From Candidatus Krumholzibacteriota bacterium (GTDB lineage: Bacteria; Krumholzibacteriota; Krumholzibacteriia; Krumholzibacteriales; Krumholzibacteriaceae), in NCBI GenBank assembly GCA_016933255.1, contig JAFGBF010000005.1:27750-91749 (forward strand): a stretch of DNA of 64,000 nucleotides, in the 5' to 3' direction. Numbering within the stretch: the first letter of the stretch is position 1; each line of letters begins with the position of its first letter. Under the pieces are notes generated by a model. The model did not search any database. It saw nothing but the letters and a program-made list of their open reading frames with translations, and was not told the origin of the DNA. Shown here in pieces: positions 5,284 through 11,921 of this stretch. A program made the translations under genes and the position numbers.

Positions 5284-6831
5284 TCACCAGGCATACAGCC
5301 TTTCTATCACATATATATCGAACGCCGAGTCGAACAGTTCGACGTCGTCGATTCCTCCACTATAATATCTGGGCACCTCGGCGTTATCCTTTCCCATCAG
5401 GAGCGGGCCGGAGGTCACAGGGGCGACCCCGGTCCCGTCGCCGCTTATCCAGGCTCCGGGGACAGCTATCGGGCCGTCCCAGAAGGCCACCAGAAGAGCC
5501 GATGAAGGGTCTCCGAAGGAGTAGGAGAATATATAATGGTTCCAGCCGTCAAGCATCCAGGTCGGAAGATCGACCCGGTATGTGTGAGTCGTCGAGCCGC
5601 CGTAGGTGAACAGGAACGAAAAGAACTCATCCGCGTCCGAAAGGTTCTCGACAGAGATCCTGTAGTTTATCGCGCCATTCTCCGACCTCTTGCTGATGAT
5701 CGTCCCGGTCGGGAAATAACCGGGGAGCTGCTGTTTCGCATCGACGGGATAGGCATCCGAGATATCCAGCCAGAAGGCGACAGTTATCCCTTCATCGAGA
5801 TCAAGAAGATCGTTGTCGGGGACCTCTATGAAGTCGCTGTATCCGTTGAAGTATCTGGCGTTGCCGTAGGCTCCCTCGAGGATCGTAGTCCCCTCTGCTG
5901 TCCCGTGAAGGAGGTTCGGCGATGTGTCCTCTATCCATGAAGGGTCTTCGCTCCCTTCGCCCCATCCCATATTCCATTCGGCGACTATTGAGGAGGTGTA
6001 GAAGAAAAGGTCGGCCTGCGCGTTTTCGTGATAGATGTCTTTTGGCGAGATGATATTTTCCTCAGTGTCCATAATAAGCTGGATCCCGGGATAGAAATTG
6101 ACCAGTTCGGCAACATGGTCATTAAAATATGTCATGATATTAATAGTCACAAGGTTTGCGTATCCGTTCGAATCAGTGAGGCTCCCGCCGAAATTGTGAG
6201 AGACCCTGAATTGTACGGAACCGCCGGTCTGGACGGAGTAGATAAGGGTGGCTATATCCTTCAGAGCCGGGTTCAGCTCGATCCCGCGCATAGGATATGT
6301 GTCCTCTGTTATCATCCCGTAATTATAGAGCACCCCTTCAAAGATACTCATCTTCTCGATATTGAATACCTTTACTTCCATAGGCAGCATCGATCCCATC
6401 GGCCTCTTTGCGTAGGCCGGAGAGACCTTTACCATCTGAACGCGGGGGTAAAGATCGATGCTAAGGGTCACCGCGGTTCCCGGTTCTACATCGGATACAG
6501 TCTCGCCGGAATATACCAATACTCCGCCGCCGTCGAACGCCTCGATCCTGAATAGCCGCGCCGGCCCGGCGGGAACGATCACTGTTCCGGTCAGAAAGCC
6601 GTCAGAAAAGAGAAGAGTCTCTTCCATAGGCTTCATCCCAGACCCGGATACCGTAAGAATAAAGGTCGTGGCGACTGTCGCGTCGAGCCCGCTGCTCGCG
6701 AGATCGATGCAGAGGTCGATCTCCTGCCCTCCGGCAGATGTGATCTTCTCCGAGCATGAGGTTAAAACCAGAGGAGTGAAAAGGAGCAGGATCATTAACA
6801 GGCTAGCAGTTCTGTGACGTCTTTCCATCAT
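5284..6831 (-). CDS. Lipoprotein with Ig/cohesin-like domains and C-terminal LamG-like jellyroll domain
   Basis: Lipobox VLTSC; AAGGAG RBS; LamG-type DTSPNLLHGT...YFNGYSDFIEVPDNDLLD...ITVAFW...YSGGIDDVELFD. Confidence 0.75.
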   Translation of the reverse strand: MMERRHRTASLLMILLLFTPLVLTSCSEKITSAGGQEIDLCIDLASSGLDATVATTFILTVSGSGMKPMEETLLFSDGFLTGTVIVPAGPARLFRIEAFDGGGVLVYSGETVSDVEPGTAVTLSIDLYPRVQMVKVSPAYAKRPMGSMLPMEVKVFNIEKMSIFEGVLYNYGMITEDTYPMRGIELNPALKDIATLIYSVQTGGSVQFRVSHNFGGSLTDSNGYANLVTINIMTYFNDHVAELVNFYPGIQLIMDTEENIISPKDIYHENAQADLFFYTSSIVAEWNMGWGEGSEDPSWIEDTSPNLLHGTAEGTTILEGAYGNARYFNGYSDFIEVPDNDLLDLDEGITVAFWLDISDAYPVDAKQQLPGYFPTGTIISKRSENGAINYRISVENLSDADEFFSFLFTYGGSTTHTYRVDLPTWMLDGWNHYIFSYSFGDPSSALLVAFWDGPIAVPGAWISGDGTGVAPVTSGPLLMGKDNAEVPRYYSGGIDDVELFDSAFDIYVIERLYAW

Positions 6832-6840
6832 TGACTCCTT

Positions 6841-7962
6841 TTAGTAGGCGACCCTGAGCCCGCCGGCAACCTGGATCCCCCTGATATCTATATCGTCGTA
6901 ATCGGTAGATCCTGTATGATAGATCAGCCCCAGATCGAGACTGAATCTCTCGGAAAAGCTTTTATTGAAGTCTGCGCCGAAATGATAGATCGATGATTTT
7001 CCAAGGTATTCTTCGCTGGTAAGTATCTGTCTCATACCGACAAGTCCGGCCAGCTGACTTCCTTTTCCCACGTTGTATGCTATGCGCAGGAAGGAATCGA
7101 ATTCATCTCCGTATTTTTTCAGCTGGCTGTCGATAACACCGTCTGTAACGCTGTATCTTTTGTTTCTTCCCCTTAGAATCATTCTGATGCCGAATGTAGC
7201 CGAATATTTATCAGCCGGATATACTGCCATCAGCCTCGCGTTGAATTGAGGGCCCTGTTTGTAGATATTATCGCCATCGAGCTGGTCAGTACCGAAAACG
7301 GAAAACCCTATATCGCCGGAATAGTCGATCTTTCTTATCGTCGCTGCAGCCGTAGCGTTGGCCGAGATGGCATCTCCCGGATCATAATCTCCGCCGTCAG
7401 AATACGGCTCGTACTTTCCGCAGTAATCGTATACGGCTGAAAGGCCGTACTTGAAACGCCCCGCCTCTTTAGCCCCTCCGGCCTGCAGGTTGAAACCGAG
7501 CCCTTCACCATACCTTCTCATCGGCAGGGAGAGGAAGTCGAAAGAAAGGAACTCGATGATCGCCCTGTCGGTCACGGGGTCGAGTTCTCTCTTTCCGGTG
7601 GGGAGATTGACCCCCGCCGAAAGCAGTATCTGGTCTTTTACGAACGAATGCGACATCTGGATCCTCAGATCGCTCAGGCCCGAAATGTCGGTCTCTCCGC
7701 TTCCGTAATCGAGGTTGTTGTATCCTTGCGCGATATAATATCTCGCTTCAAAGTTGTCCCTCAGGGGAAGAAATCCCGAAAAGATGACTGTCCTCTGAAG
7801 TATTATATTTTCCGTACCTGACGGGTCATCGAGCGTCCATCTGTTGTAGTGGAATTTCAGGATCGACGAACCCGGCTGCTGATATACTATCTGGCTCTCT
7901 GCTGAAGAAGCCAGTACAGAAAGGATAAAAATCACCGGCAGTATGATCTTTTTAGTCTGCAT
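6841..7962 (-). CDS. Outer-membrane beta-barrel protein (resembles phenol MetA-pathway/COG4313 'transporter' type)
   Basis: Signal peptide; amphipathic strands; GLSDLRIQMSH...SAGVNLPTGK motif; terminal GGLRVAY BAM-type aromatic end. Confidence 0.65.
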   Translation of the reverse strand: MQTKKIILPVIFILSVLASSAESQIVYQQPGSSILKFHYNRWTLDDPSGTENIILQRTVIFSGFLPLRDNFEARYYIAQGYNNLDYGSGETDISGLSDLRIQMSHSFVKDQILLSAGVNLPTGKRELDPVTDRAIIEFLSFDFLSLPMRRYGEGLGFNLQAGGAKEAGRFKYGLSAVYDYCGKYEPYSDGGDYDPGDAISANATAAATIRKIDYSGDIGFSVFGTDQLDGDNIYKQGPQFNARLMAVYPADKYSATFGIRMILRGRNKRYSVTDGVIDSQLKKYGDEFDSFLRIAYNVGKGSQLAGLVGMRQILTSEEYLGKSSIYHFGADFNKSFSERFSLDLGLIYHTGSTDYDDIDIRGIQVAGGLRVAY

Positions 7963-10381: not shown

Positions 10382-10439
10382 CGAGGGTACCCCCTGGTTT
10401 TAAGTTTCGGTGTTACAAGACAATTCTAGCCTATTTTTA

Positions 10440-11921
10440 CTATTCTGACCATCTTTTATTGATTTTTTTCTCTGTATCGCGCGTAATTATAACGGTTTCG
10501 GTGTATTCGCGTTCCACTCCGTCTATCACATTTACTATCTTTATCACATGTCGGCCTACCGAGAGGGAGAATGTAAATGGGGTCTGCTCTTTCTGAAGGA
10601 CGCCGTCGATATATACATCCGAATACCCCGGTCTCGAGAGGACCTTGAGCGTGCCTGTGGCAGGAATGGCAGCAGGCCTGGCTGCAGGGGGCGCAGATGA
10701 CGCAGCCGTTTCGGTATTTCTGTCTGTACCTGCCGGTTCATCCCTTTGCTGATCTTCATTGCGGAGAGCTCCGGTCGTCTCTGTATCGCCGGAAGGGTTG
10801 TCTCCATCTGTCTCCGGGGAGCCTGATCCGGACTGCCCGATAGGGACAGTTCCATCCTCCGGTCCTGTCTCCGCGGGCTCTTCTCCCGAACGGCTGCCGA
10901 AGAAGAATGCAAGCCCCGTGAAGCTGCCGGCCGGAGTGAATTTAAGGACAGCAAAAAGAGCGGCCAGTATTACAACGGCTCCTGCCAGCACAGGGAAGAG
11001 TTTCGATTTATTCCCCAGGCTTCGGTCTTTGGCTGGTTTTTTCGCGGATTTCGGCGTTTTGCCAGCTGTTTTTATCCCTACAGTCTTTGCTCCTGCAGGG
11101 GTGCCGCCGTAATGCTCGCTTACCATCTCGAGCTGCGCCCTCATCTCGGAGATAGTATCGAACCGTTTTTCAGCGTCACACTGTATCGACCTTATGATTA
11201 TCTTGTCGAGTTCCCTGTTTATCTCGCTGTTGAGTTTCGAAGGGGGCTCGGGAGTGGTAAAGAGTTTGGAGTCCCTGAGCAGAAACTCATTCTCCCCCTT
11301 GTACGGGAGTTCGCCTGTCAGCATCCGGTAGAGCATCGTGCCGACCGCATATATGTCGCATTTCGAATAATCGAGGTCTTCCCCTCCGGCGAACTGTTCC
11401 GGGGCCATATATTCCGGCGTTCCGGCAGCTGTTCCAAGGATCGTAAGATTAGGATCGGTCTTCCCCTTGGCGATGCCGAAGTCGATGATCTTCACCTGGC
11501 CGTTTTTAGTATACATGATATTGTTCGGTTTTATGTCGCGATGATATATCCCCTGGTTGTGGGCAGGTTCAAGCGCCGACATGATAGCTATCGTCATCTT
11601 CAGCGCTTCGCCGATCGGAAGGCTCTTCTTTTCTTTCAGAATCTTTTCGAGAGAGGGTCCCTCGATATATTCCATCGCGATCACGAATTCATCGCCATGG
11701 TTGAAGAAATGCCTGATCTTGCATACGTTGGGGTTCTTGTCGAGAAGGGCGAGTTTATCGGCTTCCTGCTTGAAACGCTCTGCAAGCCTGGAATCGGAGA
11801 GGACCTTGAGGACTACCTTGAGGTTCGGTACATCCTTGTGTACGGCAAGATATACCTTTGCCATAGCCCCGGAGCCGATAAAATCGAGCACCTTGTAATC
11901 GCCGAACTGTTTGTCCTGCAT
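10440..11921 (-). CDS. Membrane Hanks-type Ser/Thr protein kinase with C-terminal PEGA domain
   Basis: GSGAMAKVY, VLK, HRDIKPNN, DFG, GTPEYMAPE; TM LFPVLAGAVVILAALFAVL; PEGA GTLKVLSRPGYSDVYIDG...TP. Start moved to ATG 11921 (MQDKQFGDY) because the ORF-track start overlaps the promoter. Confidence 0.9.
   Translation of the reverse strand: MQDKQFGDYKVLDFIGSGAMAKVYLAVHKDVPNLKVVLKVLSDSRLAERFKQEADKLALLDKNPNVCKIRHFFNHGDEFVIAMEYIEGPSLEKILKEKKSLPIGEALKMTIAIMSALEPAHNQGIYHRDIKPNNIMYTKNGQVKIIDFGIAKGKTDPNLTILGTAAGTPEYMAPEQFAGGEDLDYSKCDIYAVGTMLYRMLTGELPYKGENEFLLRDSKLFTTPEPPSKLNSEINRELDKIIIRSIQCDAEKRFDTISEMRAQLEMVSEHYGGTPAGAKTVGIKTAGKTPKSAKKPAKDRSLGNKSKLFPVLAGAVVILAALFAVLKFTPAGSFTGLAFFFGSRSGEEPAETGPEDGTVPIGQSGSGSPETDGDNPSGDTETTGALRNEDQQRDEPAGTDRNTETAASSAPPAARPAAIPATGTLKVLSRPGYSDVYIDGVLQKEQTPFTFSLSVGRHVIKIVNVIDGVEREYTETVIITRDTEKKINKRWSE

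Follow-up and report, generated by a model that had tools for sequence, protein, structure and literature searches.

A conserved five-gene envelope module with a Hanks-type kinase and a predicted outer-membrane barrel, recurrent beside type VI secretion genes in Krumholzibacteriota and other candidate phyla

We analysed a 64,000-nucleotide (nt) stretch of DNA from a Candidatus Krumholzibacteriota bacterium (GenBank assembly GCA_016933255.1, contig JAFGBF010000005.1, positions 27,750 to 91,749 of the forward strand; hereafter the window). Here we describe a module of five genes at positions 5284 to 11921 that encodes a Hanks-type kinase, two CsgG-like proteins with tetratricopeptide repeats (TPRs), a predicted outer-membrane barrel and a lipoprotein, and that lies tail-to-tail with the end of a type VI secretion system (T6SS) locus. 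The module keeps its gene order across species of several phyla and recurs beside the same T6SS genes, a link that is statistical and genomic, not mechanistic. We rate it as a candidate envelope sensor-kinase accessory of a secretion machine. In full-text searches, neither a T6SS from these phyla nor a module combining a PEGA kinase with CsgG-like proteins was found described, and in the literature searched the module is undescribed.

Results

Five genes ordered across the envelope

We refer to the module proteins as K (the kinase), A and B (the CsgG-like/TPR paralogs), C (the barrel) and D (the variable-head lipoprotein). From K to D the genes are:

10440-11921, minus strand: K, Hanks-type Ser/Thr kinase with one transmembrane helix (residues 305-335), a low-complexity periplasmic spacer and a C-terminal PEGA domain
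9332-10381, minus strand: A, exported protein: N-terminal helical domain (two invariant Cys), CsgG/LpoB/TolB-N-like alpha/beta domain, C-terminal TPR
7952-9286, minus strand: B, lipoprotein (lipidated at Cys19): N-terminal TPR block, CsgG-like domain, helical region, disordered stretch, conserved C-terminal tail
6841-7962, minus strand: C, predicted outer-membrane beta-barrel of ~16 strands; long loop at 121-155 highly conserved, C-terminal residue aromatic
5284-6831, minus strand: D, lipoprotein starting Cys-[ST]-[ED]-[KRQ]; N-terminal Ig-like domain conserved, C-terminal head of LamG (concanavalin-like) type

An earlier reading made from the letters of the window (the sequence-only reading) had placed these five open reading frames (ORFs) on one strand, with B and C overlapping by 11 nt and C and D separated by 9 nt, and its coordinates proved exact. 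The remaining gaps are 58 nt between K and A and 45 nt between A and B. Barrel C is translationally coupled to lipoprotein B. The same reading held that the set covers every layer of the envelope, and the domains, topologies and barrel model bear this out: D and B are predicted outer-membrane lipoproteins, C a predicted barrel in that membrane, A a predicted periplasmic protein, and K is predicted to reside in the inner membrane.

A scan with the C-barrel alignment against one genome per GTDB species recovered 51 loci, from Krumholzibacteriota, Zixibacteria, metagenome-assembled genomes labelled Ignavibacteriales, GN15, Latescibacterota, Chitinivibrionia and one Deferrimicrobium. By tblastn and ORF clustering, the order K, A, B, C, D on one strand is found in ~45 species-level genomes, and K-A-B-C(-D) is kept in nearly every locus with enough flank (49 species-level genomes). 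The co-conservation that the sequence-only reading had put forward as a check is therefore clear: the five genes are inherited together, and their arrangement is far beyond chance, given the identical gene order in that many genomes.

The T6SS tail beside the module

In all 12 Krumholzibacteriota-clade loci with enough downstream sequence, the T6SS tail (TssK-p309-p736-p169) converges on D, ~1.6 kb past the end of C. In other phyla the tail lies beside the module in 9 of 20 loci. Within the window the tail and the junction comprise:

11-1462, plus strand: TssK (TIGR03353, 5e-12)
1478-2407, plus strand: p309, 309 amino acids (aa), C-terminal transmembrane anchor
2424-4634, plus strand: p736, 736 aa, N-terminal P-loop GTPase domain, one transmembrane helix and a periplasmic domain
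4657-5166, plus strand: p169, 169 aa, exported (signal peptide), with no Cys or lipobox
5199-5224: bidirectional intrinsic-terminator hairpin between the convergent D and p169 genes, with an 11-bp stem, 8 G-C pairs and T-runs on both strands

The hairpin that the sequence-only reading had described as shared is real, terminator-like on both strands and with a folding z-score of -4.2 against shuffled sequence. The orientation it had given, head-to-head with the TssK cassette, is corrected here: the two sets are separate transcription units that run tail-to-tail, with p169 as the immediate neighbour of D and TssK 3.7 kb beyond.

Seen from the T6SS side, the module is present in six of the eight T6SS-centred loci with enough flank (L068, L099, L100, L126, L127 and L129, not L125 or L128). 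Locus L125 belongs to a complete Zixibacteria chromosome, CP070674.1, which carries both sets 580 kb apart, the T6SS at 221-243 kb and the module (L023) at ~800 kb.

Several loci carry inserts between D and p169. These encode 1000-1400-aa beta-helix proteins that carry BACON/Ig domains together with a type IX secretion system (T9SS) C-terminal sorting domain (L026, L028, L032, L035 and L055 on the module side; L077, L080, L084, L085 and L095 on the T6SS side), and the same gene families trail p169 in T6SS-centred metagenome loci at the point where the flank ends. An early count, in which ~10 of 13 T6SS loci lacked the module, was set aside as unreliable since such a gene fills the flank in several of them. 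It underestimates the linkage because the same beta-helix families separate D and p169 in the module-centred loci. The inserted gene could itself encode a T6SS-linked surface protein or effector.

The outer flanks of the pair are not constant. The gene upstream of K differs across Krumholzibacteriota loci (a mechanosensitive channel, an Fe-S protein, an arginine-deiminase-like gene and others), and the flank upstream of ClpV, the first gene of the T6SS locus, also varies between loci. Residual synteny alone therefore does not account for the adjacency of module and T6SS; the two are either held together by selection or travel as one island.

A T6SS locus of 13 genes

The window opens close to a contig end and lacks the remainder of the T6SS. 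Its TssK product has no database entry, the only other contig starts 3 nt into the window, and the upstream half of the locus was accordingly taken from relatives. There the locus is constant at 13 genes, in the order ClpV (split into two ORFs), TssB, TssC (PF17541), Hcp (PF17642), VgrG, TssE, TssF, TssG, TssK, p309, p736 and p169 (for example L100:197-17882 and L125-L129); TssC and Hcp are of the Bacteroidota type. ClpV takes the form of two slightly overlapping ORFs in all loci examined (L063-L129; L100:2824-5371), the first of ~485 aa (Clp_N, AAA and lid) and the second of ~365 aa (AAA_2 and D2-small). From the sequences, this split looks like a conserved natural break at the D1/D2 boundary, not an assembly error.

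The 13-gene locus of relatives contains no TssJ, TssL or TssM, and nothing in it resembles TssNQOPR as published (PMC10781749). The locus encodes no outer-membrane protein or lipoprotein. From their position and topology, p309, p736 and p169 presumably form the membrane complex of this T6SS, and they may represent a third kind of such complex. The AlphaFold2 model of p736 (pLDDT 82) shows a Ras/SRbeta-like GTPase and a long transmembrane helix, with a periplasmic domain made of helices and a beta domain at the end, and the protein has a weak match to DO-GTPase2. We considered p309 and p736 as divergent forms of TssL and TssM and rejected the idea: profile searches of PDB sequences were empty, and Foldseek of p736 recognised the GTPase domain only. 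Since neither sequence nor structure searches gave any likeness, the resemblance to TssL and TssM is topological only.

Kinase K

K matches Pkinase (PF00069, 7e-48) and PEGA (21.7 bits, cutoff 20.8) in Pfam. Its single hydrophobic segment, residues 305-335, is preceded by a Lys/Arg-rich stretch and followed by a low-complexity spacer of ~85 residues that leads to the PEGA domain; the ATG at 11921 agrees with the starts of orthologues. Across 27 K orthologues, K39, H127-R128-D129, N134, D147-F148-G149 and T168-P169...E175 are invariant, and a C-terminal PEGA domain was found in all of them. Judged by these residues, K is a Hanks-type kinase with an intact predicted catalytic site. The periplasmic spacer is variable, being of low complexity in Krumholzibacteriota and expanded with extra PEGA/Ig-like repeats in Zixibacteria. 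Pfam and NCBIfam found no vWA domain on K.

Immediately upstream of K, some Zixibacteria encode a PAS/GAF histidine kinase together with two or three response regulators of a single domain each (L020:318-5689, L023:1-5723). Locus L128 (CP070777.1) has response-regulator and PAS-histidine-kinase genes of the kind found elsewhere upstream of K directly after p169, with no module between (L128:12883-19020). This layout suggests a second regulatory layer, or deletion of the module.

The CsgG-like/TPR proteins A and B

A has a type I signal peptide, is not lipidated, and is the best conserved of the module proteins (44-85% identity), with C107 and C136 invariant. In Pfam it matches CsgG at 52.1 bits (7e-14, cutoff 20.8) and LpoB weakly, at 22.9 bits (cutoff 22.3). 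The CsgG match spans only positions 11-104 of the 210 in the profile, that is, the N-terminal, periplasmic half. Profile searches of PDB sequences match A to TPR at 300-344 and give a weak CsgG match. B has the lipobox LSAGC with an invariant Cys19, three to four N-terminal TPRs (strong profile matches at 20-125) and a sub-threshold Pfam match to CsgG (18.5 bits). In NCBIfam, A (1e-11) and B (7e-7) match one and the same region of TIGR04510, a putative cyclase family. The two proteins match each other at 29-38% identity (~33%) in every locus, and B is, by this measure, a clear paralog of A. On these profile matches, we assign the shared domain to the CsgG/LpoB/TolB-N-like superfamily.

The window encodes a second Hanks kinase at 37171-39807 on the minus strand (878 aa), with a Pkinase domain, a transmembrane helix, a periplasmic domain containing the sequence RLVVLSFENLG and a long TPR array. 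Pfam does not recognise its periplasmic domain, which aligns weakly with the CsgG-like domain and TPR of A (hhalign E 6.5e-4, probability 28%). It appears to represent a K+A-type pair in fused form. A sensor role for the A/B domain is suggested by the TIGR04510 match together with the apparent fusion of a weakly similar domain to this kinase. When a large protein database was searched with A, the best 120 of 342 matches were all orthologues of ~350 aa, which is uninformative on kinase fusions.

Barrel C

C has no match in Pfam or NCBIfam. Its AlphaFold2 model, built with 32 homologues, is a barrel of ~16 strands (pLDDT 84, pTM 0.79), in which loop 121-155 is the most conserved segment of the protein. 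The sequence ends in RVAY, and the terminal Y is conserved. Foldseek against the PDB returned generic outer-membrane barrels only (FadL, porins, CymA, OmpG, AlgE, PgaA), with TM-scores of at most 0.54. Because all matches were to barrels of this kind and none exceeded that score, the model identifies C as an outer-membrane beta-barrel with no close solved relative among PDB structures. Assignment to a specific structural family was rejected, the porin and FadL-like matches all being generic. Counted as clusters at 50% identity, the family has 1281 representatives at E<=1e-3, 967 at E<=1e-10 and 253 at E<=1e-30. For a distant barrel relative, the contigs found were all shorter than 2 kb.

Lipoprotein D

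D has the lipobox LTSC and matches Laminin_G_3 (Pfam, 2.5e-8). All 29 D orthologues compared share the lipobox, the motif Cys-[ST]-[ED]-[KRQ] that starts at the lipidated Cys, and a conserved N-terminal domain; in the window the motif is C26-S-E-K, encoded at 6745-6756. The C-terminal head is more changeable, a LamG domain in 13 of 32 orthologues and leucine-rich repeats (LRRs) in 16 of 32. The swapping of LamG and LRR heads on a conserved lipidated base is what a recognition subunit would be expected to show. This swapping also fits the lectin-like surface role that the sequence-only reading gave to D, in which surface exposure is a prediction.

The motif of D is absent from B, which starts Cys-Ser/Ala-Gln-Ser. 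Because the start of B has no acidic residue where D has one, the two lipoproteins may be sorted differently. It is possible that the D motif is a lipoprotein sorting or surface-export signal for these phyla.

Other genes in the window

An arginine-deiminase/DDAH-like gene (12036-12893) is divergent from K and lies immediately upstream of a Bat/MoxR-type operon (13255-23437, plus strand) of MoxR AAA_3, DUF58, a TPR/SurA-like protein, an unknown protein, BatA-VWA, two ORFs, BatD and a TPR protein. An ABC exporter (26102-28018) precedes a cluster of glycosyltransferase genes (28018-36213) that comprises GT4, GT2, a GT9 heptosyltransferase and an ATP-grasp protein, and further on lies a V/A-type ATPase operon (40558-48307). 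The glycosyltransferase, ABC exporter and V/A-type ATPase genes are ordinary genes of envelope and energy metabolism and have no evident link to the module.

Discussion

A possible relay from the cell surface to a kinase

The reading that we tentatively favour, while giving it somewhat less than an even chance, is that K-A-B-C-D is a T6SS-associated trans-envelope sensory module, a relay from the cell surface to a kinase. D would sit at or pass through barrel C, with its LamG or LRR head presented outside, where the stimulus might be a ligand, contact with another cell or envelope damage. The signal could then travel from a B-C complex through the B/A pair to the PEGA domain, which K would hold out on its long periplasmic spacer. 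In this scheme D, C and B would make up the outer-membrane sensor, and A would bridge it to the PEGA domain. Once activated, K would phosphorylate cytoplasmic targets, most plausibly parts of the adjacent T6SS (the baseplate, p309 or p736) or T6SS regulators, and T6SS assembly or firing could in this way be tuned to surface sensing.

In its favour we count the confirmed domains and topologies, the recurrent gene order, the invariant catalytic residues and PEGA domain of K, the exchangeable head of D, the TIGR04510 match and apparent kinase fusion of the A/B domain, the T6SS adjacency amid changing outer flanks, and the presence of both sets in CP070674.1. Several observations weigh against this proposal. 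Co-transcription of module and T6SS is excluded, as the genes are convergent and have their own terminator. The genomic link is also uneven. The sequence-only reading had tied the module to the T6SS, and this holds throughout the Krumholzibacteriota-clade loci and in 9 of 20 loci elsewhere, but the other 11 of those 20 show no T6SS within 5.5-10 kb. From the other direction, L128 (CP070777.1) has a T6SS with no module within 10 kb, and co-occurrence at the scale of a whole genome rests on one genome, CP070674.1. In CP070824.1 (L127), A-B-C-D adjoin the T6SS with BamA/Skp/LpxD beside A and no adjoining K. Two loci, L003 and L050, have a distant B-C pair (~31-33% identity) without K, A or D and with two other genes after it. 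Finally, the sequence-only reading had proposed a search for FHA and PP2C genes near the upstream locus, and none turned up: the loci examined yielded neither an FHA protein nor a PP2C phosphatase nor any identified kinase substrate, and neither FHA nor PP2C gave a Pfam match in the module, the full T6SS locus of relatives, the flanks or the tables of nine loci.

The two genes that follow B-C in L003 and L050 (L003:8718-13098 and L050:8679-13026) are both conserved and encode a possible second barrel and a lipoprotein. In L003 a PD40 beta-propeller comes after them, and a beta-helix protein stands before B-C. It is possible that B-C represents an older core to which different partners are recruited.

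Alternative readings

The module might instead serve independent surface signalling or the display of surface lipoproteins, functionally unrelated to the T6SS and adjacent to it through a shared genomic island. The barrel and the TPR lipoprotein would export or hold D, and the kinase would report ligand binding. The 11 of 20 non-Krumholzibacteriota loci with no T6SS nearby are what such independence would predict, as are the module's own strand and terminator and the absence of T6SS-type phospho-targets from our searches. The barrel family, with its 967 representatives at E<=1e-10, is large, B-C pairs within it occur with other partners, and the layout of TPR protein, barrel and adjoining lipoprotein recalls Slam systems. 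What makes us regard this reading as somewhat unlikely is the persistence of the adjacency: it is kept across lineages whose barrels are only ~35% identical and in which all other flanks have changed, it survives the insertion of genes for 1000-1400-aa proteins, and the single genome in which the two sets are unlinked (CP070674.1) still has both.

A structural role is a further alternative. A-B-C-D would be an outer-membrane and periplasmic anchor or conduit that the T6SS otherwise lacks, with K only regulating assembly. B and A would be CsgG-like/TPR scaffolds below the outer membrane that dock the periplasmic domains of p736 and p169 onto C. The 13-gene T6SS has no outer-membrane protein or lipoprotein of its own (p169 has no Cys, p309 is tail-anchored and p736 has a single transmembrane helix), and the module would provide two lipoproteins and a barrel right beside it. 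CsgG and PelC-type domains form rings, and A is the most conserved protein, as expected for an oligomeric scaffold. The arrangement in CP070824.1, where A-D adjoin the T6SS without K, fits a structural role at least as well as signalling. Against an anchor stand the separate, convergent transcription units, the 580 kb between module and T6SS in CP070674.1, the T6SS of L128 with no module within 10 kb, and B-C pairs in contexts other than T6SS. No homology to TssJ, TssL or TssM was detected with Pfam and NCBIfam, and by published descriptions the module is unlike TssN-R. A variable LamG/LRR head would also be unexpected on a purely structural anchor. We consider this role unlikely.

It is tempting to combine structure and signalling. 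K-A-B-C-D might be the missing outer half and the trigger of an unrecognised T6SS envelope apparatus of FCB-group candidate phyla, a receptor-gated T6SS. B, A and C would anchor the inner complex of p309, p736 and p169 to the outer membrane, and D would be a swappable receptor for prey or ligand whose engagement activates the PEGA kinase and so licenses firing. We regard this fuller version as improbable.

It is highly improbable that the module exports an extracellular polymer or fibre in the manner of AlgK/AlgE, PelB/PelC, PgaA or curli CsgG. The TPR lipoprotein, the CsgG-superfamily domain and the barrel would suit such a role, AlgE and PgaA are among the Foldseek matches and LamG is a carbohydrate-binding fold, but ~50 loci hold no gene for a synthase, glycosyltransferase, polymer-modifying enzyme or fibre subunit, the TM-scores of C to AlgE (0.45) and PgaA (0.44) are no better than to porins, and the CsgG match (11-104 of 210) stops before the part expected to hold the membrane hairpins.

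Implications

To our knowledge, it is only in Pseudomonadota (TssJLM; TagQRST-PpkA) and, more recently, in Bacteroidota (TssNQOPR) that the anchoring and triggering of the T6SS at the envelope are understood. The loci described here add a third, compact T6SS, found in several uncultured phyla without either membrane-complex set and repeatedly accompanied by a kinase module. If the two are functionally coupled, they would represent an independent way of anchoring a contractile weapon in the outer membrane, or of informing it from there, and might be the first known instance of receptor-specified firing. Without such coupling, the module still gives a widespread periplasmic domain, CsgG/TolB-N-like with TPRs, a concrete candidate role as partner of a Hanks kinase, and it defines a large uncharacterised family of putative outer-membrane barrels (~1000 clusters at 50% identity).

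Comparison with known systems

The proposed relay has parallels in RcsF with its outer-membrane proteins (OmpA/C/F) and IgaA, and in FecA/FecR, where a barrel-associated lipoprotein or ligand sensor signals across the periplasm to an inner-membrane transducer. The parts are unrelated, the predicted output of the module runs through a Hanks kinase, not through a phosphorelay or an anti-sigma factor, and the CsgG-like/TPR adaptors have no counterpart in those systems.

In Slam systems, as in the module, TPRs and an outer-membrane barrel are found with a neighbouring lipoprotein whose handle is conserved and whose binding domain varies. Slam is, however, a single protein with N-terminal TPRs and a C-terminal DUF560 barrel of 14 strands, whereas here the TPRs are on B and the barrel is C. 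C has ~16 predicted strands and no DUF560 match, the TPR_Slam match (E 0.084) is insignificant, and the module adds a kinase and A.

The alpha/beta periplasmic domain of A and B is the point of contact with the CsgG/HfaB, LpoB and TolB-N superfamily, A being above the Pfam threshold for CsgG. In the CsgG channel two transmembrane hairpins build a 36-strand pore, and the protein is lipidated and has csgE/F/A/B partners. A, in contrast, is not lipidated, the A/B domain is fused to TPRs, as in TIGR04510, and no curli genes were found in any locus examined. We therefore rejected A and B as curli channels of the CsgG type, since only the first half of the profile is matched and curli genes are lacking.

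TssJLM of Pseudomonadota and TssNQOPR of Bacteroidota are, like the module, sets of envelope proteins at T6SS loci that include an outer-membrane lipoprotein, and the Bacteroidota set also numbers five genes. No module protein has a Pfam or NCBIfam match to either set. TssN has five transmembrane helices, TssQ, TssO and TssP have N-terminal transmembrane helices and TssR is a lipoprotein (PMC10781749). By these published descriptions (PMC10781749), none of TssN-R is a kinase, a barrel or CsgG-like, which sets them apart from the module.

The TagQRST-PpkA-Fha1-PppA pathway of the Pseudomonas aeruginosa H1-T6SS likewise places an inner-membrane Hanks kinase that has a periplasmic domain beside a T6SS, together with a lipoprotein of the outer membrane and a periplasmic partner. 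Homology is confined to the catalytic domain of the kinase, and the periplasmic domain is PEGA here but vWA in PpkA. The module has no FHA target, PP2C phosphatase or ABC-type pair like TagS/T, and no TagQ/R/S/T homologue was found in or around the T6SS or module loci examined. It adds an outer-membrane barrel and a variable-head lipoprotein, and it is convergent to the T6SS genes, not embedded among them. The sequence-only reading had suggested a functional analogue of TagQRST-PpkA. The conserved genomic link to the T6SS speaks for that suggestion, but with FHA, PP2C and the TagQ/R/S/T homologues all missing the likeness is one of analogy only. The module is thus not a member of the PpkA pathway, and TagQRST-PpkA is, by analogy of layout, its closest functional counterpart.

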